A stretch of 64,000 nucleotides of DNA from an uncultured Gammaproteobacteria bacterium. Its GTDB lineage: Bacteria; Patescibacteriota; Microgenomatia; Woykebacterales; RBG-16-39-9b. How positions within the stretch are numbered: the stretch's first letter is position 1; each line of letters opens with the position of its first letter. This document shows, one piece after another, positions 18,837 through 63,437 of this stretch. The position numbers and the translations under genes are program-made. The notes beneath the pieces are model-generated. The model was not told the DNA's origin, made no database searches, and worked only from the letters and a program-made list of their open reading frames with translations. The DNA lies in NCBI GenBank assembly GCA_964367355.1, contig CAYIWY010000006.1, forward strand, positions 15,968 through 79,967, given 5' to 3'.

Positions 18837-19670
18837 TTAAAAAAGTGATAACTGCGCTTCTCTCTGGCAGCTTTTGCAGTAATGGGTTCGTCTGCCGCCA
18901 ATTTCCGTATATTCGATCGCAGTTTTACAAGTCGGACACGGCTTGCCGGTTTTTCCATAAACTTGCAAGTAATTTTGGTTGGTTCCAGGGTTCCCGAGTA
19001 AATCTCTATACGAATCAATCGTGGTACCTCGATGTTTAATACTTGAGGTTAAAACTTCTTTTATTGAATCTAATAAATTTTGAGCTTCCTCTTCAGTAAC
19101 CAATTTTGGTGCTCGGAAAGGGTTTATTTTCGCCAGAAACAAAGCTTCATCAGCATAAATATTCCCCACTCCAGCAATAGTTTTTTGGTTAACAATGGTT
19201 TCTTTAATCGTTTTCTTGTCGCTTCGATTTATTGATAAATTGAAACGTTCAGCTTTGATTTCAAACGGCTCTGGTCCTAGGTTCTTTTCAACTTCTTTGG
19301 AATCGTGAACAATAAAAGCCTCGGCTGCGCCGTTGCGGTCACAAAAACGAACTTGCCTTCCATCATCAAGATTTAAAACAAATCTTGTAAACTCGTCAGC
19401 TCGAGCGTCTTTACCTCGCAGCAGAAGTTGGCCGGTTAGTTTCAGATGGATAATTAAACTGTTGCCGTTAGAAAGTTCAATAATTAAGTATTTTGCCCGA
19501 CGAACCGCCCGCTCGATCTTTTTTCCAGTCAACATTTGGTCAAGGTCTTGACGAGATTTAATCCGCAGATTTTCACCTAAAGAAGTAATTTTGGCCTCAT
19601 CTATTCGTCTGCCAACTAAACGCTGGTTGATATCGTTGACAATTGTGGTGACTTCAGGAAGTTCTGGCAT
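18837..19670 (-). CDS. Second Fpg/Nei-family DNA glycosylase (paralog)
   Basis: MPELPEVTT N-terminus; C-terminal CPTCK...CKSCQ zinc finger. Confidence 0.85.
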   Translation of the reverse strand: MPELPEVTTIVNDINQRLVGRRIDEAKITSLGENLRIKSRQDLDQMLTGKKIERAVRRAKYLIIELSNGNSLIIHLKLTGQLLLRGKDARADEFTRFVLNLDDGRQVRFCDRNGAAEAFIVHDSKEVEKNLGPEPFEIKAERFNLSINRSDKKTIKETIVNQKTIAGVGNIYADEALFLAKINPFRAPKLVTEEEAQNLLDSIKEVLTSSIKHRGTTIDSYRDLLGNPGTNQNYLQVYGKTGKPCPTCKTAIEYTEIGGRRTHYCKSCQREAQLSLF

Positions 19671-31379: not shown

Positions 31380-31454
31380 TGGTGGCTGGGGTGAGATTCG
31401 AACTCACAACCGTAGCCTTATGAAGACTCTGCTCCGCCATTGAGCTACCCAGCC
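31380..31454 (-). tRNA. tRNA-Met(CAU), elongator-type (or the tRNA-Ile2 lysidine substrate)
   Basis: Manual fold: G1-C72, D-arm GCTC/GAGC, anticodon loop UUCAUAA, T-arm GUGAG-UUCGAAU-CUCAC, encoded CCA. Confidence 0.8.
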
Positions 31455-31491
31455 AAAGTGGGCAAATTATATCAGAGGTAGATAAAACGCA

Positions 31492-31518
31492 CAAATCCGT
31501 CTTTTAGAGACGGATTTG
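31492..31518. terminator. Perfect 11-bp-stem hairpin between the two tRNA genes
   Basis: CAAATCCGTCT-TTTAG-AGACGGATTTG. Confidence 0.45.
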
Positions 31519-31521
31519 CCT

Positions 31522-31596
31522 TGGTTGCGGGTGCCGGACTCGAACCGGCTTAAGGAAGATTATGAGCCTTCCGGGATTCCATACCCCCCACCCGCG
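31522..31596 (-). tRNA. Initiator tRNA-fMet(CAU)
   Basis: 5' CGCGGGU and 3' ACCCGCA-A-CCA give the C1xA72 mismatch diagnostic of bacterial initiator tRNA; loop CUCAUAA; T-arm GCCGG-UUCGAGU-CCGGC. Confidence 0.8.
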
Positions 31597-33416: not shown

Positions 33417-34289
33417 ATGATTAAAATTAAAGATGCCCACTCAAAATTTGTAGATCATCTCAAGTCTCAAGGTCGCTCCAGTGCGACTGTTTTAGCATAT
33501 GGAAAAGATATTGAACAGCTCGCTACCTTTCTTGAAGAACTAAAAAAGAGCCACGTCCACGAAGTTGGTACTAAAGATCTACAAGCTTTTATGGCTAAGT
33601 TGGTTAAAGAAGGCTACACCCCAAAAAGTGTTTCCCGAAAAACAAACTCAACTAAAACTTTTTTCCGGTTTCTAAAGGTTAATGAAATTATCACCGACGA
33701 TCCAGCTACACTTCTTGAACACCCTAAATTTGAGATGAAACCGCCAAGGATTCTTTCCAAGATGGAGTATCGCGCTCTCCGCGACGCTGCAAGAAGTGAT
33801 ACTCGACTCTCAGCAATTATTGAGCTACTTCTGCAAACCGGAATTAGGATCGGTGAGCTGGCTAAGCTAAGACTTCCTGATGTAAAGTTTGGCGAAAACT
33901 CACGGGCCGGAGAACTTCATGTTCCAGCTGGAGAAAGCTACCCAGACAGAAACGTTCCTTTGAATAAAGCCTGTGAGACTTCTTTGAAGAAGTATCTGGA
34001 TATCCGTCCGCAAACTAAAGACGATACTCTTTTTATTACGAAAACTGGCCGTCCGCTACTCGTTAGAAATATCAGAACAGCAATTGACCGTTATTTCCGC
34101 CTCGCCGGAATTAAGGGAGCCAAGGTAAACGACTTGCGCCACACTTTTGTCGCTCATCACTTAATGAGTGGTACGTCTTTGGTATTGGTAAGTAAGCTTG
34201 CCGGTCACAAGCGCTTGGCTACAACTGAAAAGTATCTCAACTTGATTCAAAGCCGGTTGGATGAACCAGTTAAGCTAGAAGAGCTGTAA
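33417..34289 (+). CDS. Tyrosine recombinase (XerC/XerD-like, phage integrase family)
   Basis: C-terminal catalytic residues R...HxxR...Y (LRHTFVAHHLMSG ... TTEKYLNL). Confidence 0.8.
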   Translation: MIKIKDAHSKFVDHLKSQGRSSATVLAYGKDIEQLATFLEELKKSHVHEVGTKDLQAFMAKLVKEGYTPKSVSRKTNSTKTFFRFLKVNEIITDDPATLLEHPKFEMKPPRILSKMEYRALRDAARSDTRLSAIIELLLQTGIRIGELAKLRLPDVKFGENSRAGELHVPAGESYPDRNVPLNKACETSLKKYLDIRPQTKDDTLFITKTGRPLLVRNIRTAIDRYFRLAGIKGAKVNDLRHTFVAHHLMSGTSLVLVSKLAGHKRLATTEKYLNLIQSRLDEPVKLEEL

Positions 34290-35591: not shown

Positions 35592-35667
35592 TGGTGGGCC
35601 AGCTTGGATTTGAACCAAGGACCCCTACTTTATAAGAGTAGTGCTCTAACCGCTGAGCTACTGGCCC
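35592..35667 (-). tRNA. tRNA-Ile(UAU)
   Basis: Manual fold: acceptor GGGCCAG/CUGGCCC, D-arm GCUC-AGCGGUUA-GAGC, anticodon stem CUACU/AGUAG, loop CUUAUAA (anticodon UAU), T-arm CUUGG-UUCAAAU-CCAAG, discriminator A plus CCA; Ile-type body. Confidence 0.8.
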
Positions 35668-37871: not shown

Positions 37872-38639
37872 TCAAACATGTAGAACTTGAAGCGTAAGGA
37901 AAACTGTAATTATTCCAATCACAAAAAATATAGCTTGATGCCACTTCCTGTCTTTTAAGTAGACATGTTGCAACTCCGGAATAATATCTGAAGCAGCAAT
38001 ATAGATAAACATACCACCGGTGAAGGCAAGAATCAAACCTAAATAGGGCTCTATCAGATCTGCTACAAATAAAGTCACAATTGCTCCAAGCAGAGCTGCT
38101 AAACCAGACAAAATATTGAAAATAATTGCTTTTTTGGCTCCAATATCGCTTTTGAGTAAAATTGTAAAATCAGAAATTTCCTGAGGAATTTCGTGAGCAG
38201 CAACTGCGAGAGATGTGACTATTCCCAAAGGAATACTTACCAAGAAACTTGAGGCGATTACAAACCCATCAATAAAGTTGTGAAACCCATCTCCAAACAA
38301 AATTAAATTTACTACTGCCTTCCTTCGAGAGCCTTCAAGGTTTTGGGCATCGTTATGGGGATGAAAATTTATCAAAATCCTTTCTAAAAAGAAAAACATA
38401 ACCAGACCAAGCAAGGCTGCAATAAAAATGTTTGGGTTTGAATTTGATTCAGCTTGAGCCTCTGGCAAAAGATCGAGAAAAGCAGTGGCTAAAAGAACAC
38501 CAGCAGCGAAAGACAATAGATGAACACTATTTTCTCCTTCCCAAAGTTTTTTCCATAAAAGAATAAACCCCCCTGCTAGAGAAAGGATGCTTCCAAAAAA
38601 GGTAAAAATTAAAACATATAATACAATTTCAAGATTCAT
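37872..38639 (-). CDS. ZIP-family divalent metal transporter (ZupT-like)
   Basis: HNFIDGFVIA and HEIPQEISDF motifs. Confidence 0.8.
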   Translation of the reverse strand: MNLEIVLYVLIFTFFGSILSLAGGFILLWKKLWEGENSVHLLSFAAGVLLATAFLDLLPEAQAESNSNPNIFIAALLGLVMFFFLERILINFHPHNDAQNLEGSRRKAVVNLILFGDGFHNFIDGFVIASSFLVSIPLGIVTSLAVAAHEIPQEISDFTILLKSDIGAKKAIIFNILSGLAALLGAIVTLFVADLIEPYLGLILAFTGGMFIYIAASDIIPELQHVYLKDRKWHQAIFFVIGIITVFLTLQVLHV

Positions 38640-40351: not shown

Positions 40352-41581
40352 TTAATTTATTACCGAAGAAAGATTGAAAGAGAGATCAGCTAAGTTAACC
40401 TTGAAAGAGGTTATTTTAGTTTTATCCTTTATTAGTTTAGTTATCGCATTTCTGTCAACTGGAAGGTTTATTAGACTCGCCCCAACAATTGTTTCTTCCC
40501 GAATTAAGAGCCGTCCAAGCTTTTTATCAGCTAGGCTGCCGCGTTCAATTAGTTCGGTGTTCTCATCAACCATCGGGTCCCCAAGGAAAGAAAAGTTGCT
40601 ATCAAATATATTTATTGAGTACATACTTGTTGTCTCGAAGACTTCTCTTTGCCCAACCATATTTAACCCTGCAGCTCGACCTTGGGAAGAAGCGTTGGCC
40701 CAATTACCTAAAGAATGGGTGCGCTTAAAAACTACATCGTAAAATTCCGCCACATCACCTGCTGCCCAAACACCGGGAGCAGTAGTTTCTAAATACTCAT
40801 TTGTTAAAACACCTTTATTTAAGTTTATTCCGGAATCTTTTAAATACTCAATATCCAAATGAATTCCAATCCCGACTCCGGCAATATCAGCTTTAATTAT
40901 TGAACCAGTATTCACTTTGATCCCTTCCAGTTTTGCCTCACCGACGAACTCGACTGCTTGAGTTTCAGTTAATATTTGCACTCCATTATCAATCAAAAGT
41001 TGTGACAAAAGTTTTCCGGAGTTCTCCCCGACAACTGGTTCCCAAAAAGATTTCTCGCGAATAATTGCTGTTGTTTTAAGGCCGTTTTTAATAAAACTCT
41101 GGGCAAACTCAATCCCAATAAAACCGCCGCCCAAGACAACGGCTTCCTTACTACGAGCCATTATTTCTTTAATTTTTTTTGCGTCTTCCAGGGTTCTCAT
41201 ATAAACAACTTCCGGGAAGTTGCCCCCAGGGGTTGGCAATTTATTTACTTTACCTCCGGTTGCGATTAGTAGTTTTTCGTAATTAAAAGTTTGGTTATCG
41301 CTAGTTGTCACCAGCTTACTTTGTACATCAACTTTAACAACTCTGAGGTTTGTCAAAAATTGGATATTTTTTTGTTGGTAATTTTCCGGTGTGCGAACAA
41401 ATAAACTTTCGAGGGTGTTCTCGTTTCTGAGAAAATGTGGGACAAGTACCCGAGAATAAAGCCGGTCAGCTTCTTCGGTAATAATTGTTATTGTTGCATT
41501 TTGGTTTTTAGAGCGGATTTCTTCAGCTGCAGTTGTGCCGGCTATTCCTCCACCAATGATTAGAAAATCAACTTTAGTCAT
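40352..41581 (-). CDS. FAD-dependent pyridine nucleotide-disulfide oxidoreductase family (ferredoxin/rubredoxin reductase or NADH oxidase-like)
   Basis: DFLIIGGGIAGTTAA (FAD) and AVVLGGGFIGIEFA (NAD(P)) Rossmann motifs; 409 aa. Confidence 0.8.
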   Translation of the reverse strand: MTKVDFLIIGGGIAGTTAAEEIRSKNQNATITIITEEADRLYSRVLVPHFLRNENTLESLFVRTPENYQQKNIQFLTNLRVVKVDVQSKLVTTSDNQTFNYEKLLIATGGKVNKLPTPGGNFPEVVYMRTLEDAKKIKEIMARSKEAVVLGGGFIGIEFAQSFIKNGLKTTAIIREKSFWEPVVGENSGKLLSQLLIDNGVQILTETQAVEFVGEAKLEGIKVNTGSIIKADIAGVGIGIHLDIEYLKDSGINLNKGVLTNEYLETTAPGVWAAGDVAEFYDVVFKRTHSLGNWANASSQGRAAGLNMVGQREVFETTSMYSINIFDSNFSFLGDPMVDENTELIERGSLADKKLGRLLIREETIVGASLINLPVDRNAITKLIKDKTKITSFKVNLADLSFNLSSVIN

Positions 41582-41797
41582 TTATGGGTAAACTTGCTTT
41601 CCAGTCGGGTCGGTTAATATAATTGCTGCCACTGGACAGGTTTGAGCTGCTTCTTTGAGAGCATCGTCACTATCAACACCCTGGGCTATTACGACCGATT
41701 TACTCTCCGTATCCAATTGAAACGTTTTGGGAGCTAATCGAACACAATCACCAGATCCAATACAGAGATTACGATCAACTTTAGCAGTAAAGGGCAT
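41582..41797 (-). CDS. Small single-cluster ferredoxin
   Basis: 71 aa; CIGSGDC ... CP Cys ligands; paralog at 52679-52888. Confidence 0.7.
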   Translation of the reverse strand: MPFTAKVDRNLCIGSGDCVRLAPKTFQLDTESKSVVIAQGVDSDDALKEAAQTCPVAAIILTDPTGKQVYP

Positions 41798-41798
41798 G

Positions 41799-42701
41799 TT
41801 ATTTTTTCTCCTTAAAAAAATTATACCATTTTTTTGTTGGTTTTTCTGAAAGGGTGTTTGCCTGTGTACTGTTTACGGAAACCTTAGCGTCACTATCCTT
41901 GGAAATATCATCAACGATTTTCATTATGACCTCAGGTGATGGCTTGCTGGGAAAATCCAGTTTAATATCATAGCTTTTAGCGCTTGGGTCCAACTTTTCT
42001 TCTGGTTTTGACTTTAAACCAACTCGCTTACGGTAAACCTTAAACAACCGATAAACTATACCAAAAATTGCAAGGGCTAAGAAAGAAAAGTATAGCGTTC
42101 GAAACAACGGTTTCGTACTATCTCCACCCCCAAAAAAAGCGTGATAAACAATTAAAAACAGGGCCAAGTAGTTTATAATGTGCAACGGGCGCCACCATTT
42201 TTTACCAGTTACTCCAGGAACATGTGTAATTAAAGTATTAAAAGCAATTGTAATTAAAGCAATAAGTCCGGCAAATAATATGTTACTGGTTGCAGTCCAA
42301 GCTATGTTTGTCGGCAATAAACTGGCGATTTTAAAGTTAATTCCAAGACGGTTTTGATACAGTAGGTAGATAACAAAGTGTGAGATTGCCATACCGACAC
42401 CAACAGAAGAGGTCCATTTGGTATGGACTTCCCAAAATGAGGCGTTCTTGTAAAGAACGATTAGGAAACCTCGCAAGGCTCCGAGCACCATCGTAATACC
42501 GATCAAAACAAAAGCAAGAATTCCGGTTAACCTCAAGAAAAAAAGATAAATTGTTGCCTTGGTCAAAATTTCTGTCGCTTTTGTGGATCCGGAAATAAGT
42601 AAGAAAAAGGCATAAAACAAAGAGATAAGTGCAAAGATAACCAGAGTGAGAAAAAATGTTCCAATTGCAATGAGAGCAGCTTTTTTTATCATAGTTGACA
42701 A
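41799..42701 (-). CDS. Ferric-reductase-like transmembrane domain protein (putative bis-heme b)
   Basis: Six predicted TMs; His pairs H-x14-H in TM3 and H-x12-H in TM5 (PLHIINYLALFLIVYH); 80-aa hydrophilic tail. Confidence 0.5.
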   Translation of the reverse strand: MSTMIKKAALIAIGTFFLTLVIFALISLFYAFFLLISGSTKATEILTKATIYLFFLRLTGILAFVLIGITMVLGALRGFLIVLYKNASFWEVHTKWTSSVGVGMAISHFVIYLLYQNRLGINFKIASLLPTNIAWTATSNILFAGLIALITIAFNTLITHVPGVTGKKWWRPLHIINYLALFLIVYHAFFGGGDSTKPLFRTLYFSFLALAIFGIVYRLFKVYRKRVGLKSKPEEKLDPSAKSYDIKLDFPSKPSPEVIMKIVDDISKDSDAKVSVNSTQANTLSEKPTKKWYNFFKEKK

Positions 42702-43345
42702 GTTGGGTCAGTTGGCGCTGGCAGTGTGTAAATATAAAGAGCAATTCTTTGCCAGCAACCTAGGCCTGCGTGTTTACTTAAATAAATATTTGTCATGTTT
42801 GTTGGGGCAGATAATGTCCCGCACTGAAAACTACTACTCTTGTGAGTATGTTTTTTCCCGGAGGTTTGATCGTTAACGGACACATTGACGGCAGATTGCA
42901 TATTGTAGAGATACCCATTTACGGTGATAAAACAGCCTGACGGTGCTGGAGGCGGGGTTGCTGGCGGTGGTGTAGCTGGTGGCGGACTGCTCGATGGTGG
43001 TGAACTTGCTGGTGGGTTTTGAGTGGTTCCGCTCGATGCGGGTGGGTTTGTAGTGGAACTATTGGCAGCATTATTTGCCGGAGGATTTTGGGTGTTTTCA
43101 GTCGTCGAGGAGTTTGGGGTAGTACTTGTAGCATTGGGGTTACTAGTGTTTGAATTAACCATAGTCAAGTTTCCGGTTTTGAAGGTTGTACTTCCAATAG
43201 AAACTTTATAAACACTGTCGGCAACATAGGTAAACGTAAGAGTGACTGTGATAGATAGACAGGTTAAAAATATTGCCTCAATTAACCAACCTTTAAGAAA
43301 AAATGCTTTTACTTTTTGAAAAAATGCTCTTATTTTAGTAATCAC
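42689..43345 (-). CDS. Membrane-anchored Ser/Thr/Pro-rich hypothetical protein
   Basis: N-terminal TM; low-complexity PPATPPPATPPPA linker; Cys-containing C-terminal region. Confidence 0.4.
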   Translation of the reverse strand: MITKIRAFFQKVKAFFLKGWLIEAIFLTCLSITVTLTFTYVADSVYKVSIGSTTFKTGNLTMVNSNTSNPNATSTTPNSSTTENTQNPPANNAANSSTTNPPASSGTTQNPPASSPPSSSPPPATPPPATPPPAPSGCFITVNGYLYNMQSAVNVSVNDQTSGKKHTHKSSSFQCGTLSAPTNMTNIYLSKHAGLGCWQRIALYIYTLPAPTDPTCQL

Positions 43346-43839
43346 TACTTATCCTTTGGCAAAACTCCGAAAAAAAGTATTATCGTAAAGCTATCTGTTT
43401 TGTAAGGTGTTGGATAGTATTCGAGTTCCGCATATTGCTGACCCTTGTGATAATGTGCAACCCAAAATTTATCGCGGATTGGTTCTCCGACTAGTGTTTC
43501 CTGAGAAAAACCCTTTAATTTAAACTCTTTATCATAAAAGGCGAAGATCTCTCTAGAAATCGGGGTTGTACTAATCGCTATTGATTTTTGGCCAACCGCT
43601 AAAACCAAACGTTCTTTTTCTGTTTTCTCATCAAGTAGCACACTAACTTGTTCGTAGTTTGGTTTAGCCCAGTCTAACCCTGGAAACTGTTTTAAAGATA
43701 AGAGCGCTGCTTGTACTTGTTTCGCAGGTGGGTTTTGGGCCTCATACACTAAAAGCGGTAAAGTTCCCAGCAAGAAACTTAGGATTATTATCCCAATCAT
43801 CGTACCCTTCTTAAGATGCTTCGGTTTATACTTTCTCAT
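43345..43839 (-). CDS. Hypothetical membrane-anchored protein
   Basis: N-terminal TM; 164 aa. Confidence 0.4.
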   Translation of the reverse strand: MRKYKPKHLKKGTMIGIIILSFLLGTLPLLVYEAQNPPAKQVQAALLSLKQFPGLDWAKPNYEQVSVLLDEKTEKERLVLAVGQKSIAISTTPISREIFAFYDKEFKLKGFSQETLVGEPIRDKFWVAHYHKGQQYAELEYYPTPYKTDSFTIILFFGVLPKDK

Positions 43840-43844
43840 TAAAA

Positions 43845-44249
43845 TTAGTCCCCTAAAATACCCACAATTGGATACTTTTCTTTTATTATATCTCCCCCGA
43901 AGATTTTTAGCTGAGTTGTTGCATCCCTAGCTACAAGATAATGATAAGGTTTACCCTCCCCGTAGTACTGCTCTTTACCCGCAGTCACATCATAAACTAA
44001 ACAATCCAAACCAATATAAATGGTTGGGTCTTGCAATCCATTATGACTGAGTAGCTCTTCTTTAGAAATAGTTGGTAACTTAGCTAACATGGCTGAATTG
44101 GTGACCTCCTTGATAATCGCTTTGCACTCTGGCGGTGGTGAATAAAACCAGAAATAATAAATAACACCGGAAAAAACTATAAGAAACAAGATAATTATAC
44201 TGGTCGATCTGAATCTTGATTGTTTATTGAAAATTCTGACAGAAATCAT
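43845..44249 (-). CDS. Membrane-anchored cytochrome b5-like / MAPR-like heme-binding domain protein
   Basis: N-terminal TM; LVYDVTAGKEQYYGEGKPYHYLVARDATTQL resembles the b5/MAPR core (VYDVT ... FYGPGGPY ... AGRDAS). Confidence 0.5.
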   Translation of the reverse strand: MISVRIFNKQSRFRSTSIIILFLIVFSGVIYYFWFYSPPPECKAIIKEVTNSAMLAKLPTISKEELLSHNGLQDPTIYIGLDCLVYDVTAGKEQYYGEGKPYHYLVARDATTQLKIFGGDIIKEKYPIVGILGD

Positions 44250-44659
44250 TATTCTTCCGTCACCTCGAGGCTAGAAGGTGTAGTAAAAATTTCAAATGAA
44301 ACTCTTAGACTCAAAGCCAACAATATCACTAAATGAGCGAAAAACGATAGAACCAGAAAGTAGATCACACTGACCAAGTTCTCATCAATCCTCAATTTTG
44401 ATAAAAGATAGGCAAAAACCATTGTTGAAGCAACCCGCAGAAATAAAATTAACTTTTTTTCTCTGAGGAATTCTCGCCAAGGAGTTCTGTGAGAATAAAC
44501 AACAGCGAAATACACGTGAGTTAGGAAGAGAGCTACGAGATAAAGTTTCGTTAGGATAGCTGGCTTGTAGACCAGTATGGGGATGAGCAAAACTGAAGCT
44601 ATTACTAAAAGCAGAAGTTTTTTCCAAAATAATTCTTTATCAATTAACACCACTTTCAT
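44249..44659 (-). CDS. Small polytopic membrane protein
   Basis: Four hydrophobic segments. Confidence 0.4.
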   Translation of the reverse strand: MKVVLIDKELFWKKLLLLVIASVLLIPILVYKPAILTKLYLVALFLTHVYFAVVYSHRTPWREFLREKKLILFLRVASTMVFAYLLSKLRIDENLVSVIYFLVLSFFAHLVILLALSLRVSFEIFTTPSSLEVTEE

Positions 44660-44728
44660 ATGGGTATTTTAACTCCGTACACTAATTAGAGCAACCAAGG
44701 GCACTTGTTTTAGCATTAGTGAAACGAG

Positions 44729-45097
44729 TTAAAGCTGAGCCAGGGTTTTCTTTAAAACTTCAAGAGAAAGTAATGCACATTTTAAACGGGCGGGTCCGGG
44801 TTGAATTCCTATCAATCCCAACAAATCCTGTTTCTTAATGTTTTCGACAAACGAGAGTTTTTGTCCTTGTATTTTTTCCGCCAAGAAAGATGCTGAGACT
44901 TGGGAAATAGCACAACCATTTCCTGAATAGACTGCTTGTTCAATAACTCCATTTTTAACTGATAGTTGAAGTAATACTTCATCACCACAAAGTGGGTTTA
45001 CTAACCGGGCTTCCAAATCTGGTCGGTCAAGAACCCCTTGGTTAACTGGGTTGGATAAGCGTTCTAATAGAACTTCTCTGTATAATCTATCACTCAT
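44729..45097 (-). CDS. sufU: SufU (NifU/IscU-like sulfur-transfer protein)
   Basis: NPLCGDEV and GNGCAIS motifs; start moved to MSDRLY. Confidence 0.8.
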   Translation of the reverse strand: MSDRLYREVLLERLSNPVNQGVLDRPDLEARLVNPLCGDEVLLQLSVKNGVIEQAVYSGNGCAISQVSASFLAEKIQGQKLSFVENIKKQDLLGLIGIQPGPARLKCALLSLEVLKKTLAQL

Positions 45098-45290
45098 AGA
45101 TATCACTTTCTCGCCGTTGCGAGCATGCGTTAAGAAGAAATTAAACAAAGCGACCTAGCTCAAATTACTTTGTTTGAGTCCGCTGCTCTTGCGGACGAGT
45201 TTAGTAATTTTGCTTGAGCGACTTTAATTTCTTTAGCAGCGCAAGCCAGGCGAAAGTTTTGGTGTTACCTTTCTGAAAAGGTAACAGAAA

Positions 45291-46553
45291 CTAATTAATC
45301 TTAAAAGTTTTCTTGGCTTTTTCTATTGCAGGTAAGAGTTTATCAATTTCTGCTTTAGTATTGTAGAGATGGAAACTTACTCTGGCAGCAGCATTTATTC
45401 CAAGAACCCCCATCAAAGGTTGGGCACAGTGATGGCCGCTACGAATGGCAATACCTTCCCCATCTAAAATGGAAGCCAAATCATGAGGGTGAATTACCAC
45501 CTCACCTTTTTTGTCAACAATATTAAAGGAGATAACTCCCGAGCGTCTTTCCAATTTTTCAGGCCCATAGATCTCAACCCCTGGGGTTGATTTCAATTGG
45601 TCGATGGCGTATTTCGTCAAATCTGCTTCGTGCTCGCGCACTCTTTTCATACCAACTTTAGCTAAGTAATCACAAGCAGAGGCAAGTCCAATTGCACCAG
45701 CCACATTTGGAGTTCCCGCCTCAAATTTCCAAGGAATATAGTTGTAAGAAGCTTTCGCAAAACTTACTTCCAGTATCATATCTCCTCCACCCAAAAACGG
45801 TGGCATTTCTTCAAGCAATTCTTTCTTGGCCCAAAGAACCCCAATGCCGGTCGGTCCCAGCATCTTGTGTCCAGTAAAAACATAAAAGTCACAACCTAAA
45901 GTCTGTACCGAAACCGGCAGATGCGGTACCGCCTGCGCGCCATCAATTAAAACTTTTATTTTTGGATTGTAGGTTTTAATTTGCTCGATTATTTCTTTCA
46001 CCGGGTTAATGGTTCCCAAAACATTGGAAACATGAGTTAAGGCAACTAGTTTAGTTTTGGCAGTTAAATACGTTTTTAGTTCGTTATTCTTGATTCGTAA
46101 TTCACCACGTTCATCAATCGGGATAAATTTAAGTTTTACACCAACTTCCTGAGCTAACATTTGCCACGGAACTAAATTAGAATGATGCTCCATTTCGGTC
46201 AAAAGAATCTCATCGCCGGATTTCAGATTTGCTCGACCCCAGCTGTAAGCAACTAGGTTAATTGCCTCGGTGGCGTTACGGGTAAAAACAATCTGGCGTT
46301 TATCACCACCGTTGATAAAATCCGCCACAGTCTTTCGTGCACTCTCATACATTTCCGTCGCCTCTTCGGAAAGTTTGTGCACTCCCCGATGGACATTGGC
46401 GTTGTGGTTTTCGTAGTAATCGGCAATCGCAGCAATTACCTGCTTTGGTTTTTGACTGGTAGCTGCATTGTCAAAATAAACCAAATCGTGGTTGTAAATT
46501 TTCCGTTTCAGAATTGGAAAATCACTACGAATTTTTTCAATGTTTTCTAGCAT
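45291..46553 (-). CDS. sufS: Cysteine desulfurase SufS (class V aminotransferase)
   Basis: PLP-Lys region TGHKMLGPTGIG; active-site loop RSGHHCAQP. Confidence 0.9.
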   Translation of the reverse strand: MLENIEKIRSDFPILKRKIYNHDLVYFDNAATSQKPKQVIAAIADYYENHNANVHRGVHKLSEEATEMYESARKTVADFINGGDKRQIVFTRNATEAINLVAYSWGRANLKSGDEILLTEMEHHSNLVPWQMLAQEVGVKLKFIPIDERGELRIKNNELKTYLTAKTKLVALTHVSNVLGTINPVKEIIEQIKTYNPKIKVLIDGAQAVPHLPVSVQTLGCDFYVFTGHKMLGPTGIGVLWAKKELLEEMPPFLGGGDMILEVSFAKASYNYIPWKFEAGTPNVAGAIGLASACDYLAKVGMKRVREHEADLTKYAIDQLKSTPGVEIYGPEKLERRSGVISFNIVDKKGEVVIHPHDLASILDGEGIAIRSGHHCAQPLMGVLGINAAARVSFHLYNTKAEIDKLLPAIEKAKKTFKIN

Positions 46554-46597
46554 AGTAGATGGGTATTTTAAACCTAAAGCAAAGGAAAGTAAAATTA

Positions 46598-47245
46598 TTA
46601 CTTATTTGGTTGATGTATTACTAAGTTGTTATTCCAAAAATTGATATCACTATTCCACGCCAAAGCAAAACTCCAATAGGGATCTGACGGAGTAAATTTC
46701 TTATCAACCGATGCGTCACCTTCAAATAACGGGCTTACCAAAGCAAATGTTTGACCATCAGATGCATAATTGTAGTTTGCTTCGGGTAAAGTGATGTCAT
46801 TGAATAGTGGGTCTGATGGTATTTTGAATCGATCTCCATTTGCAAGATAAATATTATCAGGTAAATTAGAATATACTTTTCCTGCAGAATCTCTATAATC
46901 GCAAGTATTTTGCATTCCTGGGTTAGCTACAAAAGAAGTATTGTTAGTCCCTCCTAAAAGGCATGTTAATTGATCTTGCGGACTCCGACCACCAGACTGG
47001 AAAAGTATTCCCGCTGGTACGTGGAATGTACTTGGATAAAAACCATGATCGGCATGAAAATCTTCTAATGCTGCGGCAATTTTGTTCAAGTCAGTTTGTC
47101 TCTGAGCATTTCTAGCATTCCTGTTGACTGTTGTATAAGAAACAGCACCGATTGTTATCAGAACAACTATGATCGCGACAACGATTAACAATTCAATTAA
47201 CGTGAATCCAACTTGGAATTTTTTTGATTTGAGCAGTTTTTTCAT
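46598..47245 (-). CDS. Type IV pilin / pseudopilin-like protein
   Basis: Prepilin N-methylation motif KGFTLIELLIVVAIIVV. Confidence 0.75.
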   Translation of the reverse strand: MKKLLKSKKFQVGFTLIELLIVVAIIVVLITIGAVSYTTVNRNARNAQRQTDLNKIAAALEDFHADHGFYPSTFHVPAGILFQSGGRSPQDQLTCLLGGTNNTSFVANPGMQNTCDYRDSAGKVYSNLPDNIYLANGDRFKIPSDPLFNDITLPEANYNYASDGQTFALVSPLFEGDASVDKKFTPSDPYWSFALAWNSDINFWNNNLVIHQPNK

Positions 47246-47329
47246 CTACTTCTAATTGTAGTTATTTCCAAAACGATATGCAACAAAGCCATTAACAGTT
47301 TTAAACATATAAATATTTTTCTTTTAAAA

Positions 47330-48262
47330 CTAACTGGCGGTATGAATGTATTTTATACCAATTGCATATACCCCACCTTTAGCGATTCTGTCTGGGTAAT
47401 CTGCAAAAGCATTTAGGGTGTCTTTGGCCTCCGACGCGGATTTACTATATGGATAAATTTCAAGGAAATTTTCTGACTGGAGTAAACTTTCAAGTGATGG
47501 GTAATGATGAATAAAACCAACTTCAATAAATTTTGCGTGCCCCATTTTTGAACTAATAAATTTTATTATTTCTCCTACTTTAAGCACCTCTAAGTTATGA
47601 CCAGCTAATGAAGCACGAACCACTATCTTTATCATTTCCTTATCTAAAAATTCAAATGTTTTTTCTTCTAAGTACATCGACCAGACTCTTTTTCCACCAA
47701 CAATTCCATAAATATCCCAAACATGTTTTGAAAATGGCGAAAACTCGACGACGACTTCAGGAAAATCTTTAAACGATTTAAATCTGATATCAGGGTAGTT
47801 TGTTTCATTGATTGTTAATTCCCGAACGCTCCACTGCTCACCAAGTGAAACTGTTTCGGAATTAACAGCAGGCATCTGCACAATCCTTCCTTGAATCCGA
47901 AAAACCGGTGAGCGTCTATCCAGATCGTACTTATTATTACCGCTATTCCGGTATTTTTGTTCCAGTACAACTTTTTCCCATTCTAAAAGTTCTCTATGTA
48001 CTAATTTTTCTTTAAAAGCTCCCTCAACAAAACTTTCGGACTCTTCCAGTTCGCCTTGTTTTTTAACTCCCCATCTAAATTTCAAGTACGCTAAAAAAGA
48101 AATAACCAAGAAACCAGCTAAAGCCAGGGTATATTCATTAAAAACTAATCGAGAAACAATATCTTGTGTTTCTGGAACGCTAATTGCTAAAAATAGCAGT
48201 AAAGCTACAATAGCTATGAAAGAAATTGAAAATATCAGCAAACCCTTTGGATTAAGCTTCAT
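47330..48262 (-). CDS. Hypothetical membrane protein, paralog A
   Basis: Two N-terminal TMs; shared RSPVFRIQGR and ...SP..KHVWDIY motifs with the next gene. Confidence 0.5.
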   Translation of the reverse strand: MKLNPKGLLIFSISFIAIVALLLFLAISVPETQDIVSRLVFNEYTLALAGFLVISFLAYLKFRWGVKKQGELEESESFVEGAFKEKLVHRELLEWEKVVLEQKYRNSGNNKYDLDRRSPVFRIQGRIVQMPAVNSETVSLGEQWSVRELTINETNYPDIRFKSFKDFPEVVVEFSPFSKHVWDIYGIVGGKRVWSMYLEEKTFEFLDKEMIKIVVRASLAGHNLEVLKVGEIIKFISSKMGHAKFIEVGFIHHYPSLESLLQSENFLEIYPYSKSASEAKDTLNAFADYPDRIAKGGVYAIGIKYIHTAS

Positions 48263-48298
48263 TATTTAAATTTTAAACTTTTTGGAAAGAAAACTAAA

Positions 48299-49012
48299 CT
48301 AAATATCCTCTGCCTTGTATATTTTCCAAACGTGTTTGGTCCGTGGACTATACTCAACTACTACCTCATCGCCTTCTTGAATGGAATCAAAGATTTTTCT
48401 CACCTCATCGTTATTAAATTGGCTGGAAAATATTATATTTCTGACTGTGATGTAATAATAAAATGGTTGATCTCCTTTTTTTCCATCCGTAGCTTTTTGC
48501 GCTCTTCCTTGAATTCCAAACACTGGTGAACGTAAATCTAAATAACTTGGTCGTTCTCTTAAAGAAATTTGGATGATCCACGCTTGAAGTGGGATAACAA
48601 GTGGCCCAAAAAACAGTATTAAAGATTCCTGCAAGTTAAGTGGGTTGGTATCTATGAGTTCTTTGATAATTGGAGGCAAAGTTATCATCAAAAATACGTC
48701 TATTACAAGGAGAAAAGGAATTATAGCCCAGGGAAAGTTTTTAAACCTTGAAAAGTTTCTGGATAATTTTGTAAGCTCTCTACTTTCTGCTTCAGTTAAA
48801 TCTCTTAAAATCCTAGCCTCTTCAATACCACCCTCTTGTAAAGTTTCAATTCTTTCCTCTTTTACAATTTCTTTAGACCTTATAACTTTTTTGGCAATAT
48901 AAATTATAACTAATATTGGAACAGTAACAGCAAAAAGAGGAATGATAAGAAAGATAATTACTAATAAGACTAAGGCAAAGATACCTTCAATGTTCGCTAA
49001 TAAACCATCCAT
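48299..49012 (-). CDS. Hypothetical membrane protein, paralog B
   Basis: RSPVFGIQGR ... VVVEYSPRTKHVWKIY shared with paralog A. Confidence 0.5.
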   Translation of the reverse strand: MDGLLANIEGIFALVLLVIIFLIIPLFAVTVPILVIIYIAKKVIRSKEIVKEERIETLQEGGIEEARILRDLTEAESRELTKLSRNFSRFKNFPWAIIPFLLVIDVFLMITLPPIIKELIDTNPLNLQESLILFFGPLVIPLQAWIIQISLRERPSYLDLRSPVFGIQGRAQKATDGKKGDQPFYYYITVRNIIFSSQFNNDEVRKIFDSIQEGDEVVVEYSPRTKHVWKIYKAEDI

Positions 49013-49015
49013 ACT

Positions 49016-49591
49016 CTAGATTTTAAACTTTTTGGAGAGAAAAGTGTTAAGGGTCTCTTGTTCTTTGGCCGGAAGCAGACCCAAAACACTGTGGAAGTAA
49101 CCCTGCACTATCAGTCTTTTTGACTCTATCTGACCTATTCCTTTACTCGTTAAATAAAAGAGTTGTTCGCTGTCAACTGGTCCAACAGTTGAAGCATGTC
49201 CCGCTTTAACTTCATTTTCATCGATCTCAAGGGAAGGAATTGCCTCGGCCTTGGCTTGTTTCGAAAGCAGTAGAGCGTCTTCGCGGAAGTAAGTGTTGGT
49301 GTTTTTCGCACCTTTTTTGATTTTTACTAACCCGTAAAAGTTACCAACAGCTTGGTCAGTCAAAACTGACTTTATTAAAGTATCCGAAAAAGTATCTTCA
49401 CCAACATGATAGATATTAATATTCAGTTTTACTTGATCAGAATTTGCCAAAAACAAAGCTCCGAGAATAGTAAGTCTCGATCCTCTACCCACAAGAGCTG
49501 CATTGACATTAATTTCCTCTGAACCTCCTGTCCAAACTAAAGGTAATATTTTTTCTTGATTTTCTTTTAAATTTAAATTAATGTTTTTCAT
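49016..49591 (-). CDS. sufD: SufD-like Fe-S assembly protein, short (C-terminal beta-helix region only)
   Basis: 191 aa; C-terminal AGHASTVGPVDSEQLFYL matches the SufB/SufD family. Confidence 0.65.
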   Translation of the reverse strand: MKNINLNLKENQEKILPLVWTGGSEEINVNAALVGRGSRLTILGALFLANSDQVKLNINIYHVGEDTFSDTLIKSVLTDQAVGNFYGLVKIKKGAKNTNTYFREDALLLSKQAKAEAIPSLEIDENEVKAGHASTVGPVDSEQLFYLTSKGIGQIESKRLIVQGYFHSVLGLLPAKEQETLNTFLSKKFKI

Positions 49592-50129
49592 TTAGGAACT
49601 TTTTTAATTTTTTCAAGGCTTCTTTTCGAGTGGAAACTTGATTTTTCTCTTCAGGAAGCATTTCTGCATAGGTTTTTTCAAAACCATCGGGTTGGAAAAT
49701 ACGATCCCATTCCCAACCATATTCACCTCTTTGCTCTTTTGTAATTGATCCTTTTGTGGTTGCTGAGAATACTTTTGCCCCTGATTCATCACAGTAACCA
49801 ATCGAAATTTTGACTTCTGCGGTTCTATTTTTTTCTCTATCCAACATATTTAAAAAACCATCTACACCAACAGTCTCTTTTGTAAACCAAACAATTAGCG
49901 CTCCTGGCAAACCTTGCCAGGCCACAATAGATAGAGAGGAATCCTCTACAATCAAAGGCTTTTTTAATCGCGCGTAAGCATCTTCAGCTTTTTTCAAAGC
50001 CACTTTATCTGAATCAAGTTCTTGGATTTCATGAATGTCCAGGTCCCTTGAATCAAGTACCATTCCAAGAATCTGGCCAAATTCTCGAACTTTATTTTGA
50101 TTACCAGTAACAAGAATTAAGTCTTTCAT
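49578..50129 (-). CDS. rdgB: Non-canonical purine NTP pyrophosphatase (RdgB/Ham1)
   Basis: LVTGNQNKVREF motif; 183 aa. Confidence 0.85.
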   Translation of the reverse strand: MKDLILVTGNQNKVREFGQILGMVLDSRDLDIHEIQELDSDKVALKKAEDAYARLKKPLIVEDSSLSIVAWQGLPGALIVWFTKETVGVDGFLNMLDREKNRTAEVKISIGYCDESGAKVFSATTKGSITKEQRGEYGWEWDRIFQPDGFEKTYAEMLPEEKNQVSTRKEALKKLKKFLNEKH

Positions 50130-51557
50130 TTAACCTACTGCTCCGATCATCTCAAGTTGAATCAAACGATTCAGTTCAAGAGCATATTCAAGTGGAAGTT
50201 CCTTAACGATTGGCTCAATGAATCCGTTGACGATCATTGAAGTTGCATCGTTCTCACTCATCCCCCGGCTCATTAAGTAAAAGAGTTGATCCTCACCGAT
50301 TTTGGAAACACTGGCTTCATGGCCAATATTGACATCTTCTTCATCAATTTGCATGGTTGGATAAGTATCACTGCGGGAATTGCCGTCAAGAATTAGAGCG
50401 TCGCAGCGAACGTTAGCTTTGACACCAGAGGCTCCTTTAATCACTTTCAACATTCCCCGGTAAGAAGTCCGACCACCGTCTTTGGAAATGGATTTGGAAA
50501 TAATTTGCGAACTAGTATCGGGCGCTAAGTGAATTGCTTTACCGCCAGCGTCTTGATGTTGGCCTTTACCTGCAAAAGCAACTGACAAGATTTCTCCCCG
50601 AGCGCCACGACCACGCAAGTAAACACTTGGATATTTCATCGTAATTTTTGAGCCGATGTTGCCGTCGACCCATTCCATAACCGCGTTTTCATCAACAAAG
50701 GCTCTTTTAGTGACTAGATTGTAAACATTATTGGACCAGTTTTGGATCGTGGTGTAGCGGAAGCGGGCGTTCTTTTTAACAAAAATTTCCACGACCGCCG
50801 CGTGGAGTGAATCAGTCGTATAAATCGGCGCGGTGCAACCTTCAACATAATGCGCCTGCGCTCCTTCATCAATAATGATTAAAGTCCGCTCAAATTGGCC
50901 CATGTTGGCCGCATTGATACGGAAGTAGGCCTGCAAGGGAACATCAACTTTAACTCCAGGCGGGACGTAAATAAAACTCCCACCGGACCAAACTGCAGAA
51001 TTTAAAGCAGCTAACTTATTGTCAGCTGGTGGAATTGCTTTGGCAAAATATTCTTTAAAAAACTCTGGGTATTTTTGTAATGCTGAATCAGTATCGAGAA
51101 AAATTACCCCCTTTTTCTCCCACTCTTTTTTGATCGAGTGGTAGATTACTTCACTGTCGTACTGAGCACCAACTCCAGCCAAAAGCTTTTTTTCAGCTTC
51201 GGGAATTCCAATCTTGTCATAAGTATCACGAATTTCTTCCGGTAAATCTTCCCAGGTTTTGCTCTGCTTCTCAGTTGGCTTAATATAATAATAAATATCG
51301 TCGTAATTAATGGTTGAAAGGTCAGCACCCCAAGTTGGTTGCTTTTTTGCTTCAAAAATCTTCAAGGCCTTCAATCGAAAATCCAGCATCCACTCCGGTT
51401 CGCTCTTGTGAGCGGAGATTTCCTGGACAACACTCTCATCTAAACCTTTTTTCGATTTAAAAAAAGAAATATCTTTTTTTGCGAACCCGTACTTTTCGCG
51501 GTATGTTTGATTAATTTCAACCTGTGCAACTTTTGGCATATTGTTTTCATTTGTCAT
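50130..51557 (-). CDS. sufB: Fe-S cluster assembly protein SufB
   Basis: 475 aa from [10 protein letters not shown]; SufB family throughout; the longer ORF to 51608 would read through the palindromic element. Confidence 0.9.
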
Positions 51558-51607
51558 CTCGAACGTCAGTGAGAGATCTCTCGTCACCAGCGCTCCTCGA
51601 GATGACA
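51552..51607. repeat. Nested palindromic element, copy B, between the sufC stop and sufB start
   Basis: TGTCATCTCGA ... GAGAGATCTCTC ... TCGAGATGACA; first arm overlaps the sufB ATG, last arm overlaps the sufC TAA. Confidence 0.6.
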
Positions 51608-52330
51608 TTACATCTGAGCGTAACCAGTACTTTCAATCTCTTCAGCTAGTTTATAGTCCCCGCTTTTGACAATCTTGCCGTCAACCAGGATGTGGACAAA
51701 GTCTGGCTTGACGTACTTCAAAATTCGCTGGTAATGGGTGATTAACAAAATCCCAATCTCAGATCCGGCAACATTACTAATGCCTTTTGAAACGGTTTTG
51801 AGTGCGTCAACATCCAGTCCGGAATCAGTTTCGTCGAGAATCGCGTATTTTGGCTTTAAAATGGAGAGTTGCAAAATTTCTGCCTTCTTCTTCTCTCCTC
51901 CGGAAAAGCCATCATTAATACTTCGAGTTAAGAACTTTTCGTCCATTTTTAGATTTTTCATTTCCTTTTTTACTATTTTTTGAAACTCAAGGGCTGACAC
52001 TTGTTGACTCTCGAGATTTTTGTTAGCGGATCGAAGTAGGTTGAAGACAGAAACCCCAGGTACAGCCACCGGGTACTGCATTGCTAAAAACAAACCGAGT
52101 TTAGCTCGTTTGTCTGGAGTTATTAAATTAATGTTTCTACCGTCAAGAAGTATTTTCCCGGCAGTTATTTTGTAGCGCGGATGCCCCATTAACGCTAATG
52201 ACAAAGAGGATTTCCCCGAACCGTTCGGTCCCATGACGGCGTGAACCTCACCTTTATTTATTTTAAGGTTAACGCCTTTAAGGATTTCTTTGTTGTCAGT
52301 CGAAACGTGGAGGTTTTTAATTTCCAACAT
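51608..52330 (-). CDS. sufC: Fe-S cluster assembly ATPase SufC
   Basis: Walker [10 protein letters not shown]; ABC signature; start at MLEIKNLHV. Confidence 0.9.
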
Positions 52331-52402
52331 ATAGTAAACAAGAATACAAGAGAAACAAGTTTTAGGCAAACTCTTCTGGATTGGTAACAAAAAGAATGTA
52401 GT

Positions 52403-61756: not shown

Positions 61757-62050
61757 TCACTTGTTTGTAATTATTTTTCCCGAAATTTTTTCAATATTTA
61801 CTTCTCCAAAAGTCCGCGAGTCCAAACTATCTGACCTATTATCCCCCATCAAACTAACTGACTTACCATTTATTTTAGCAACGCGTTTAATCAATTCTTT
61901 ACCATCTTGCTCAAAGATTACAATATCGCCTACCCTTATCTTATTAATAAGATAAGGCCAGTTGTTGACCCAAACAACTTGACCGTTCTTTAAAGTTGGT
62001 TCCATGCTGTGACCGGAAATCTTGTAGCGCGAAAATGGAGTTAATTTCAC
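61757..62050 (-). CDS. sodX: Minimal S26-family signal-peptidase-like protease, proposed NiSOD maturation peptidase SodX
   Basis: SGHSMEPT (SxSMxPT Ser box) and GDNRSDSLDSR boxes; 97 aa, no TM; 4-nt overlap with sodN. Confidence 0.7.
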   Translation of the reverse strand: MKLTPFSRYKISGHSMEPTLKNGQVVWVNNWPYLINKIRVGDIVIFEQDGKELIKRVAKINGKSVSLMGDNRSDSLDSRTFGEVNIEKISGKIITNK

Positions 62051-62472
62051 TTTTTAGCAGTCGCTTTTACTTTGGAAAATATCTCGGCTATTTGGTCAAC
62101 CTGATCACGAAGATCTTTGGCAGCTTCGGCATTAACTTCCCTTTTGTTGGTCGAACAAAGTTTGGTTGTTTTCCAGACTAAATCATGAAGATTTGGAAAA
62201 TCAGCCAAATTTTCCTCTTTGAAGAAATCTGTCCAAAGAATTAATATTTGACGTTTACAAGCTTCCGCATGTTCTTCTTTAACAGAAACCATTCGGGTAA
62301 AGTTATTGCGGTCTTGAGGCGTTGGCTTAGTGGGAATAGCTAAGATTTTCTCGACCATCTTTTCAACGGTCTCCGCTGCTACCTTGGCTGTGTTAGTTTC
62401 ATAAATTCCACAAGGAATATCGCAGTGGGCATAGGCTTCTTTAATTGGAAAAATTAAATCAAGTATTTTCAT
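62047..62472 (-). CDS. sodN: Nickel-containing superoxide dismutase precursor
   Basis: Propeptide MKILDLIFPIKEAYA followed by Ni-hook HCDIPCGIYE (canonical HCDLPCGVYDP); about 127-aa mature protein. Confidence 0.85.
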   Translation of the reverse strand: MKILDLIFPIKEAYAHCDIPCGIYETNTAKVAAETVEKMVEKILAIPTKPTPQDRNNFTRMVSVKEEHAEACKRQILILWTDFFKEENLADFPNLHDLVWKTTKLCSTNKREVNAEAAKDLRDQVDQIAEIFSKVKATAKK

Positions 62473-62525: not shown

Positions 62526-62554
62526 TTGACACTTGTAATATTCCAGCCTACAAT
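62526..62554 (+). promoter_or_regulatory. Sigma-70-like promoter for the SPFH gene
   Basis: TTGACA - 17 nt - TACAAT. Confidence 0.5.
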
Positions 62555-62561
62555 ATTATTA

Positions 62562-63437
62562 ATGGAAACCCAACTGCCAATACCCAATACTTCTGGTATT
62601 TCTGAAAAGCTCAGAAGTATCTTCTCAGGTAAGCTCATTCTCAAACTTCTACTAGCTATCTTTATCATCTACCTATTAAGATCAACGTTTGTTTTTGTTC
62701 CAGCTGGACACGTTGGGGTAAAATACGACCGCGGCAGTGGGGTGCTCAACAGTACTTTAAAAGAAGGCTTGAATCTTTCAATTCCGTATTGGCAAACAGT
62801 CACTCTATTTGACGCCAGACTTCAAGAATATACCATGAGTGTAGTTCCGGATGAAGGGGCTCTTCTCCGCGACGATTCTCTTGATGCGCCAACAAGCGAC
62901 GGTCAACAAGTAACAATCGATGCAACGGTTCTGTTTAGGGTTAACCCGGATAAAGTTCACGAGATATTTAAATCAATTGGTCCAGATTATGTTGATAAGA
63001 TAATTCGACCAACTTCAAGAAGCCAGATTCGTATGGTTATTAGCCGCTACAGTGCCACTGCAATTTATTCAGAAAAACGTCAGGAAGCAGAAAGGGTTAT
63101 GACCACAGAGATCTCAGAACTACTCGAACCCAAAAATATCTTGATTGATAAAGTTCTTCTCAGAGCAGTTTATTTCTCCCCTGAATACTCTAACTCTATA
63201 GAACAAAAAGTAATTGCAGAACAAAAAGTCAAGCAAGCAGAGTTTGAGGTCAAAGAGGCAACCCAAAGGGCCCAGGCAAAAATTGCTGAAGCCGAAGGTC
63301 TTGCCAAAGCCCAAGCACTTCAAAAAGCCAATTTAACTTCGGAATTTATTCAACTTGAAGCAATCAAAAAATGGAATGGTGTTATGCCAACAGTCACTAG
63401 TGGCAATCCGTTTATCAATATCCCTCTAAATAAGTAG
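62562..63437 (+). CDS. SPFH/band-7 (prohibitin/HflC-like) membrane protein
   Basis: N-terminal TM; SPFH core and C-terminal coiled coil AEQKVKQAEFE... Confidence 0.8.
   Translation: METQLPIPNTSGISEKLRSIFSGKLILKLLLAIFIIYLLRSTFVFVPAGHVGVKYDRGSGVLNSTLKEGLNLSIPYWQTVTLFDARLQEYTMSVVPDEGALLRDDSLDAPTSDGQQVTIDATVLFRVNPDKVHEIFKSIGPDYVDKIIRPTSRSQIRMVISRYSATAIYSEKRQEAERVMTTEISELLEPKNILIDKVLLRAVYFSPEYSNSIEQKVIAEQKVKQAEFEVKEATQRAQAKIAEAEGLAKAQALQKANLTSEFIQLEAIKKWNGVMPTVTSGNPFINIPLNK

Follow-up and report, generated by a model that had tools for sequence, protein, structure and literature searches.

The pairing of sodN, the gene for nickel superoxide dismutase (NiSOD), with sodX, the gene for its maturation protease, is textbook knowledge, and the nickel ligands and the maturation of the enzyme were reportedly established by Barondeau 2004, Wuerges 2004 and Eitinger 2004. 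In cyanobacteria, sodX directly follows sodN on the same strand, and NiSOD becomes active only with this cognate peptidase; in marine cyanobacteria a putative nickel permease gene, sodT, is linked to the pair. SodX activates NiSOD via cleavage of the preprotein (PMC8346466). Here we analyze a sodN-sodX locus within a 64,000-nucleotide stretch of contig CAYIWY010000006.1 (referred to below as the window), which derives from an organism of the Microgenomates type in the candidate phyla radiation (CPR).

NiSOD has already been reported from Patescibacteria, where its clade is nested within Chloroflexota sequences and where sodN is inferred to have arrived through at least three horizontal transfers from Chloroflexota; neither sodX nor maturation is mentioned in that study (Sutherland et al., bioRxiv 10.1101/2021.01.12.426412). 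The window SodN shows no difference in kind from this published group of Patescibacteria and Chloroflexota enzymes. Its nearest named relatives are proteins of Daviesbacteria, Curtissbacteria and Microgenomates metagenome-assembled genomes (57-62% identity), and NCBI already labels the Daviesbacteria proteins 'superoxide dismutase, Ni'. The sodN-sodX locus described here is a routine case of a well-known system: we put the probability that it encodes a NiSOD precursor together with its own SodX-type maturation protease, a minimal S26 enzyme, at roughly 0.9.

SodN is a NiSOD precursor with an intact nickel hook

The sodN product matches the Pfam family Sod_Ni (PF09055) at 141.6 bits (E = 2.6e-41, cutoff 25 bits) and the NCBIfam model TIGR02753 at 144.9 bits (E = 1.9e-42, cutoff 90 bits), and its sole matches among PDB sequences are the Streptomyces NiSODs (E of about 1e-17). 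The initial annotation, made from the letters of the window alone, had described a 141-residue open reading frame (ORF) with a 15-residue propeptide followed by the hook HCDIPCGIYE. All of these elements are present at the positions listed in Table 1, with the hook codons checked base by base: the translation starts with MKILDLIFPIKEAYA and continues directly into HCDIPCGIYE. Residues 16-136 align to residues 1-115 of the S. coelicolor enzyme (PDB: 1t6u; E = 7e-18), reaching its C-terminus. In this alignment, His16 is matched to His1 of the crystallised mature protein and HCDIPCGIY as a whole to His1-Tyr9. SodN is a NiSOD family member with an intact hook, and by analogy with the Streptomyces enzyme it would bind nickel and be active in the organism. 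An identical 141-residue protein is found in public assemblies.

The resemblance to the S. coelicolor and S. seoulensis enzymes (1t6u, 1q0d) includes the HCDxPCGxY hook placed straight after an Ala-ending propeptide, a mature chain that can be aligned over its full length, and a conserved Tyr9. The window SodN differs from them in having only about 40-45% identity and in a six-residue insertion after helix 1 in the alignment. At the position of Streptomyces Tyr62 the window SodN has Phe, while the equivalent of Lys64 is conserved; family-wide, these two positions are occupied by Tyr or Phe and by Lys or Arg. Two further Cys residues of SodN, in AEACK and KLCS (residues 72 and 106), are kept in most NiSODs of the CPR clade and absent in the Streptomyces enzyme, and they do not strictly co-occur across loci.

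Close homologs of SodN were taken as the best 120 in a collection of 5.8 billion proteins. The hook reads HCD[IV]PCG[IVM]Y in 120/120 of them, and its His, both Cys, Pro and Tyr are invariant in 97/97 diverse NiSOD representatives. Conservation extends into the propeptide, where position -1 is Ala in 120/120 close homologs, position -3 is Val, Ala or Ile in 119/120 and position -7 is Pro in 117/120; among diverse representatives, -1 is Ala in 106/108 and -3 is Ala or Val in 104/108. Propeptides of the close homologs are mostly 15-20 residues long, a range that the 15 residues of SodN fit. The leader ends in AYA just before the hook His, and at 15 residues, with a maximum hydropathy of 0.78, it has neither the length nor the hydrophobicity of a Sec signal. 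Type I signal peptidases prefer Ala-x-Ala at -3/-1, and a pattern of this type is what would be expected if an S26 enzyme cuts SodN.

The overlapping gene encodes a bare S26 peptidase core

The gene that follows and overlaps sodN had been called a minimal S26 peptidase without a transmembrane segment, carrying the boxes SGHSMEPT and GDNRSDSLDSR. Both boxes are there, and the description stands. The product, referred to here as SodX, matches Pfam Peptidase_S26 at 74.9 bits (E = 9.8e-21). No hydrophobic segment was found in it (maximum Kyte-Doolittle mean over 19 residues, 0.56), and with a Ser box that begins at residue 13, the N-terminal transmembrane anchor of signal peptidase I is not present. 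SodX relatives are 93-107 residues long, and those at 43-49% identity carry the JGI name 'nickel-type superoxide dismutase maturation protease'.

Alignment to SpsB, the type I signal peptidase of S. aureus, pairs the Ser/Lys dyad of the 97-residue protein with the catalytic residues of that enzyme. Ser15 corresponds to the Ser of SpsB GESMDPT (the deposited SpsB 4wvg has Ala there), Lys55 to the Lys of YVKRV and GDNRSDSLDSR to GDNREVSKDSR. The initial annotation had named two findings that would refute it, a hook or a Ser/Lys dyad missing on alignment, and neither was seen. Among 76 aligned relatives, Ser15, Met16, Pro18, Gly69 and Asn71 never vary, and Lys55, Arg56, Asp70, Ser75, Asp77 and Ser78 reach at least 90% conservation; Lys55 is invariant in alignment A1.

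An AlphaFold2 (AF2) model built on the 76-sequence alignment has a mean predicted local distance difference test (pLDDT) score of 83.2. Searched against the PDB with Foldseek, it returned SpsB 4wvh as the top match (TM-score 0.83, root-mean-square deviation 2.2 Å), then SipA, then LexA/UmuD. A first model from a 15-sequence alignment was discarded (pLDDT 65.7, a disordered Ser box and no Foldseek match at E <= 0.001).

SodX shares the fold, the Ser/Lys dyad and the GDNxxxSxDSR box with SpsB (4wvh) and E. coli LepB (1b12). Unlike them, it lacks a membrane anchor at the N-terminus and runs from the Lys box to the GDN box without an intervening extra domain; its 97 residues compare with about 190 in SpsB and 324 in LepB. 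SodX amounts to an anchor-free S26 catalytic core. It presumably works in the cytoplasm on a single substrate, and by analogy with the characterized maturation proteases it would cleave pre-SodN between Ala and His.

The sodN-sodX pair recurs across distant lineages

SodN relatives were sought in one genome per species, which gave 20 sodN loci. In 14 of these 20, sodN is followed on the same strand, within about 160 bp, by a small S26 gene; these 14 belong to Daviesbacteria, Curtissbacteria, Microgenomates, Peregrinibacteria, Elusimicrobiota and a Thermoplasmata archaeon. Both actinobacterial loci (2/20) have a protease gene that is divergent and upstream, with a hydrophobic N-terminal extension in the product. 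An Aenigmatarchaeota locus (1/20) has its S26 gene 2.7 kb from sodN, and in a Dehalococcoidia locus (L017, 1/20) the gene after sodN encodes a full-length LepB-like protein of 189 residues, which has a hydrophobic N-terminus and scores 130.8 bits on TIGR02227. The contig ends just past sodN in one locus, and no S26 gene was found in the 1.4 kb available beside sodN in another.

The pairing is also seen in three further relatives (L027-L029), one of which, L028, has the identical 4-bp overlap of sodN and sodX and a 97-residue product. In contrast, four flanking genes of the window, encoding a 226-residue coiled-coil protein, a 110-residue membrane protein, an SPFH protein and an M14 peptidase, have no homolog beside sodN in 23 other loci. 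None of these four genes is conserved beside sodN elsewhere, so the sodN-sodX pair is the unit.

The initial annotation had equated this architecture with SodX of Streptomyces and cyanobacteria. A minimal S26 core joined to sodN stands; the likeness to Streptomyces does not extend to gene arrangement, because actinobacterial loci carry the protease gene divergently upstream with the N-terminal extension, whereas in the window it overlaps the downstream end of sodN. The cyanobacterial pair (Prochlorococcus/Synechococcus) is similar in having a small anchor-less S26 gene right after sodN. No gene comparable to cyanobacterial sodT is linked to sodN-sodX in the window or in the flanks of the three relatives.

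Promoter-like sites lie before sodN (Table 1) and after sodX, the second at 61715-61687 on the minus strand between sodX and the next gene. Both come from a consensus scan, and their hexamers are consensus matches only. Their placement suggests that sodN-sodX is a bicistronic unit. The GTGA overlap would couple translation of the two genes, and the two genes of the sodN-sodX unit are probably co-translated. A search upstream of sodN for a regulator-type palindrome returned only trivial 9-nt repeats.

Table 1 Features of the sodN-sodX locus, in window coordinates.
Feature	Coordinates	Strand	Evidence
sodN, NiSOD precursor, 141 residues, ATG start	62047-62472	minus	Sod_Ni, TIGR02753, alignment to 1t6u
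Propeptide MKILDLIFPIKEAYA, 15 residues; Pro(-7), Ala(-3), Tyr(-2), Ala(-1)	62428-62472	minus	Homolog profile
Nickel hook HCDIPCGIY, mature residues 1-9; ligands His1, Cys2, Cys6	62401-62427	minus	Sequence, 1t6u
sodX-like gene, 97-residue soluble S26 Ser/Lys peptidase core, GTG start	61757-62050	minus	Profile models, AF2, Foldseek
GTGA overlap, 4 bp, sodX GTG start and sodN TGA stop	62047-62050	minus	Sequence
Ser box GHSMEPT, nucleophile Ser15 (codon 62006-62008)	61994-62014	minus	SpsB alignment
Internal ATG inside the Ser box, start in public gene models	62003-62005	minus	Sequence
General-base Lys55 in LIKRV	61886-61888	minus	SpsB alignment
GDNRSDSLDSR box, conserved C-terminal box of S26 peptidases	61814-61846	minus	SpsB alignment
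Promoter-like TTGGCA-16-TAATAT upstream of sodN	62553-62580	minus	Consensus scan, 9/12 matches, weak evidence

Side observations were made at several of these loci. The S26 genes adjacent to sodN in L006 (Curtissbacteria, 5471-5899) and L008 (4608-4937) have KDKSMEP in place of GHSMEP and a degenerate GDN...DSR box, and their products fail both NCBIfam cutoffs; these genes may be divergent or decaying forms of sodX. In L029 (8001-16462), sodN-sodX is followed by SufC-SufB-SufD-NUDIX-SufS-SufU, a Pyr_redox_2/Reductase_C flavoprotein and VIT1. The window keeps this gene order (40352-52390, minus strand) with ~9 kb inserted between SufC and sodX, containing PAP2, VanY, a 653-residue membrane protein, FemAB, GH130, the M14 peptidase and two unknowns. 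The region with sodN-sodX, the SUF genes and the flavoprotein appears to be an oxidative-stress and Fe-S neighbourhood that is loosely conserved. Within the window locus itself, plus-strand ORFs at 61761-61955 and 61996-62181 are taken as antisense shadows of sodN and sodX. The best promoter-like site of the sodN region is TTGACA-17-TACAAT on the plus strand (62526-62562, 11/12 matches), which lies inside the 5' end of the 303-residue SPFH ORF (TTG at 62526); the SPFH gene may instead start at the ATG of METQLP, at about 62562, and be nearly leaderless.

Weighing the assignment

Observations on family scores, gene models, the second coordination sphere and the nickel and oxygen context weigh against the assignment. 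SodX scores 52.7 bits on TIGR02754, the NCBIfam model of the NiSOD maturation protease, which is below the cutoff of 63.25, and it scores higher on the generic signal peptidase I model TIGR02227 (76.7 bits, above the cutoff of 47). Combined with the LepB-like protein that follows sodN in L017, these scores would fit a 97-residue protein that acts on secreted proteins, as the cell's general signal peptidase I (LepB/Sip) or as a paralog, and lies beside sodN by chance. We regard this as highly improbable. The TIGR02227 match is split into two separate stretches of the 162-position model, whereas the TIGR02754 match spans positions 2-88 of 90; a protein of only 97 residues has neither the transmembrane anchor nor the extra beta-sheet domain; and the adjacency to sodN is kept across very distant lineages. 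Given the known topology of signal peptidase I, a soluble cytoplasmic protein would also be unable to reach Sec substrates on the outer side of the membrane. For proteases adjacent to sodN in ten loci, TIGR02754 scores range from 36.7 to 79.5 bits in the cases where the model gives a match. These scores straddle the cutoff, and we therefore treat the sub-threshold score of SodX as a limit of model sensitivity. With that cutoff missed, the assignment of SodX to the maturation protease family rests on architecture and synteny.

Public gene models of the same contig (NCBI, Logan, ENA) start sodX at the internal ATG (Table 1) and give an 82-residue protein without the catalytic Ser. Additionally, a scan of four candidate starts found no Shine-Dalgarno-like sequence before sodN or sodX. 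Were the 82-residue model right, with its start at ATG 62005, SodX would be an inactive S26 remnant and SodN would be processed otherwise or never. ATG is a canonical start while the 97-residue model needs GTG, gene callers picked the ATG in the window contig and truncated 37 of about 108 short relatives likewise, and neither the GTG nor the ATG is preceded by a Shine-Dalgarno-like sequence. Nonetheless, the 15 residues before the internal Met are conserved as MK[LVF][IT]PFSRYK[IV]xGHS in orthologs at 53-71% identity, the Ser is invariant in 76 sequences, residues 6-10 form a strand of the modelled fold (pLDDT 82-90), and the GTGA overlap recurs in L028, where the protein is called at 97 residues. 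A remnant is accordingly the least credible of the alternatives, and the conserved upstream residues and their part in the modelled fold indicate that the 97-residue SodX model is right.

The start of sodN was examined in the same way. The longest sodN ORF has 161 residues and starts 20 codons further upstream at a GTG at 62532; the NCBI model on a 125-kb contig uses this start, 20 codons too early. The initiating Met of SodN in L001 and L003 aligns with the window Met, which favours ATG 62472 over the upstream GTG. As the Shine-Dalgarno scan is uninformative, the starts of both genes are settled by homolog conservation.

The second coordination sphere also departs from that of the characterized enzymes. 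In Streptomyces NiSOD, Glu17 and Arg47 hydrogen-bond His1 (PMC5722923). The window SodN has Ala and His at these positions (residues 32 and 68 of the precursor, 17 and 53 of the mature chain, 17 and 47 in S. coelicolor numbering). Position 17 is Ala in 120/120 close homologs. Across 97 hook-bearing cluster representatives, positions 17 and 47 co-vary, with Ala/His in 39, Glu/Arg in 22 and minor combinations in the rest; Ala/His is the commonest state among diverse representatives, and all solved structures are Glu/Arg. The Ala/His state marks a subclade and does not exclude NiSOD membership, and it is a clade-level trait that is not specific to this locus. It is conceivable, albeit with the odds against it, that Ala17/His47 enzymes constitute an uncharacterised, distinct subclass of NiSOD with another inter-subunit hydrogen-bond network for the axial His1, here in an ultra-small groundwater symbiont without a dedicated nickel importer that possibly takes up nickel through a broad-range ZIP carrier.

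For the metabolic context, 66 ORFs of the window were annotated with Pfam, and precomputed Pfam annotations were used for the flanks of L027-L029. No NikABCDE, NiCoT or HupE/UreJ was found in the 64-kb window or in the flanks of the three relatives. The metal carriers found instead are ZIP, CNNM, Nramp, a P-type ATPase and VIT1, of which only ZIP (37872-38639, in the window) and Nramp (in L028) are candidate importers. The nickel acquisition that the initial annotation had read from the presence of NiSOD is accordingly not shown by a nickel-specific transporter in these neighbourhoods. Repeated assemblies of this contig exist, both from Logan runs and from Hainich H52 groundwater, and the identical contig from well H52 comes from anoxic water with 0 mg/L dissolved oxygen. 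Because that well is anoxic, real exposure to superoxide, the second implication drawn earlier, remains inferential. Such exposure would be compatible with the two Fpg/Nei glycosylases and the SUF system that the window encodes.

Taken together, these points could describe a pair that is intact but idle: a horizontally acquired cassette in an anaerobic fermenter without dedicated nickel supply, with little or no active NiSOD. The transfer of sodN from Chloroflexota into Patescibacteria that a published phylogeny infers (bioRxiv 10.1101/2021.01.12.426412) would be in line with such an origin. We find an idle cassette improbable. All catalytic and hook residues are kept under evident purifying selection in relatives at 50-75% identity, the GC content is in line with that of the surrounding genome, and the gene order shared with relatives points to vertical inheritance within the lineage. 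Broad-range divalent-metal carriers do exist in the ZIP and Nramp proteins mentioned above, and the two Fpg/Nei glycosylases together with the SUF system fit exposure to oxidative stress. We therefore retain the reading of an NiSOD precursor with its own maturation protease.

The initial annotation had also pointed to a putative NADH oxidase (NOX)-like module elsewhere in the window. The candidate, a 409-residue Pyr_redox_2 flavoprotein (40352-41581, minus strand), is nearest to putidaredoxin, ferredoxin and rubredoxin reductases, which are its full-length PDB matches. NADH oxidases match its N-terminal 310 residues only, so NOX identity is not established. Beside the flavoprotein, at 41799-44659 on the minus strand, are four ORFs without a Pfam match and a protein with a weak cytochrome-b5-like domain (43845-44249). 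The Fpg/Nei paralogs are arranged in tandem on the minus strand (17992-18810 and 18837-19670), each with N-terminal, H2TH and zinc-finger domains. Two such paralogs are notable in a small genome, and they fit a role in the repair of oxidative base damage.

Proposed maturation pathway

The steps proposed here draw in part on the characterised Streptomyces and Prochlorococcus systems (PMC8346466; PMC5722923). In those systems the His1 amine can serve as a nickel ligand only once the propeptide has been cut off. SodN would be synthesised as an inactive 141-residue precursor. The soluble 97-residue SodX would then bind the propeptide, with Ala(-1) and Ala(-3) expected in its S1 and S3 pockets, and through its Ser15/Lys55 dyad would cut between Ala15 and His16 of SodN. 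The freed His1 amine, the Cys2 backbone amide and the Cys2 and Cys6 thiolates would wrap Ni(II), with the His1 imidazole as the predicted axial ligand in the Ni(III) state. Cycling between Ni(II) and Ni(III) would then dismutate superoxide in the cytoplasm.

Other features of the window

The window has a CPR-like gene set that includes an ATP-dependent DNA ligase, DHODH, ClpB, FolD, PolA, FtsH, the SUF cluster, FemAB, VanY, GH130 and type IV pilin-like proteins. One region, 6580-9300, has a GC content of 0.44-0.46 compared with about 0.38 in much of the window and lies beside a Fic gene. It holds only ORFs without a Pfam match, many of them overlapping and on both strands, including a 298-residue putative secreted protein (7267-8163) and a 155-residue ORF (8828-9295), and it may be a foreign island. 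An rve-type integrase/transposase with a helix-turn-helix motif at 22619-23500 on the plus strand suggests an insertion sequence element. A XerC/D-like recombinase gene (33417-34289) adjoins DivIC, and a XerC-DivIC pair is also found near sodN in L028.

ARAGORN located two tandem tRNA-Met(CAT) genes ~70 bp apart (31380-31596, minus strand) and a tRNA-Ile with anticodon TAT (35592-35667, minus strand). Over the whole window, Rfam returned tRNAs only, and only one of the two tRNA-Met genes scored above the gathering score.

Implications

The importance of this locus beyond annotation is small. Its main practical consequence concerns public resources: because SodX is called from the Met after the catalytic Ser and SodN is called too long, surveys of functional sodX or of propeptides that are based on public models would be misled. 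The curated SodX model, likewise, misses the window protein and some other sodN-adjacent proteases. The replacement of Glu17/Arg47 by Ala/His is a reasonable target for bioinorganic study.

With regard to the organism, the pair agrees with published evidence that Patescibacteria acquired NiSOD and that many of them have superoxide dismutases even in anoxic groundwater. It would give a CPR organism of the Microgenomates type a compact superoxide defence that is independent of iron and manganese.

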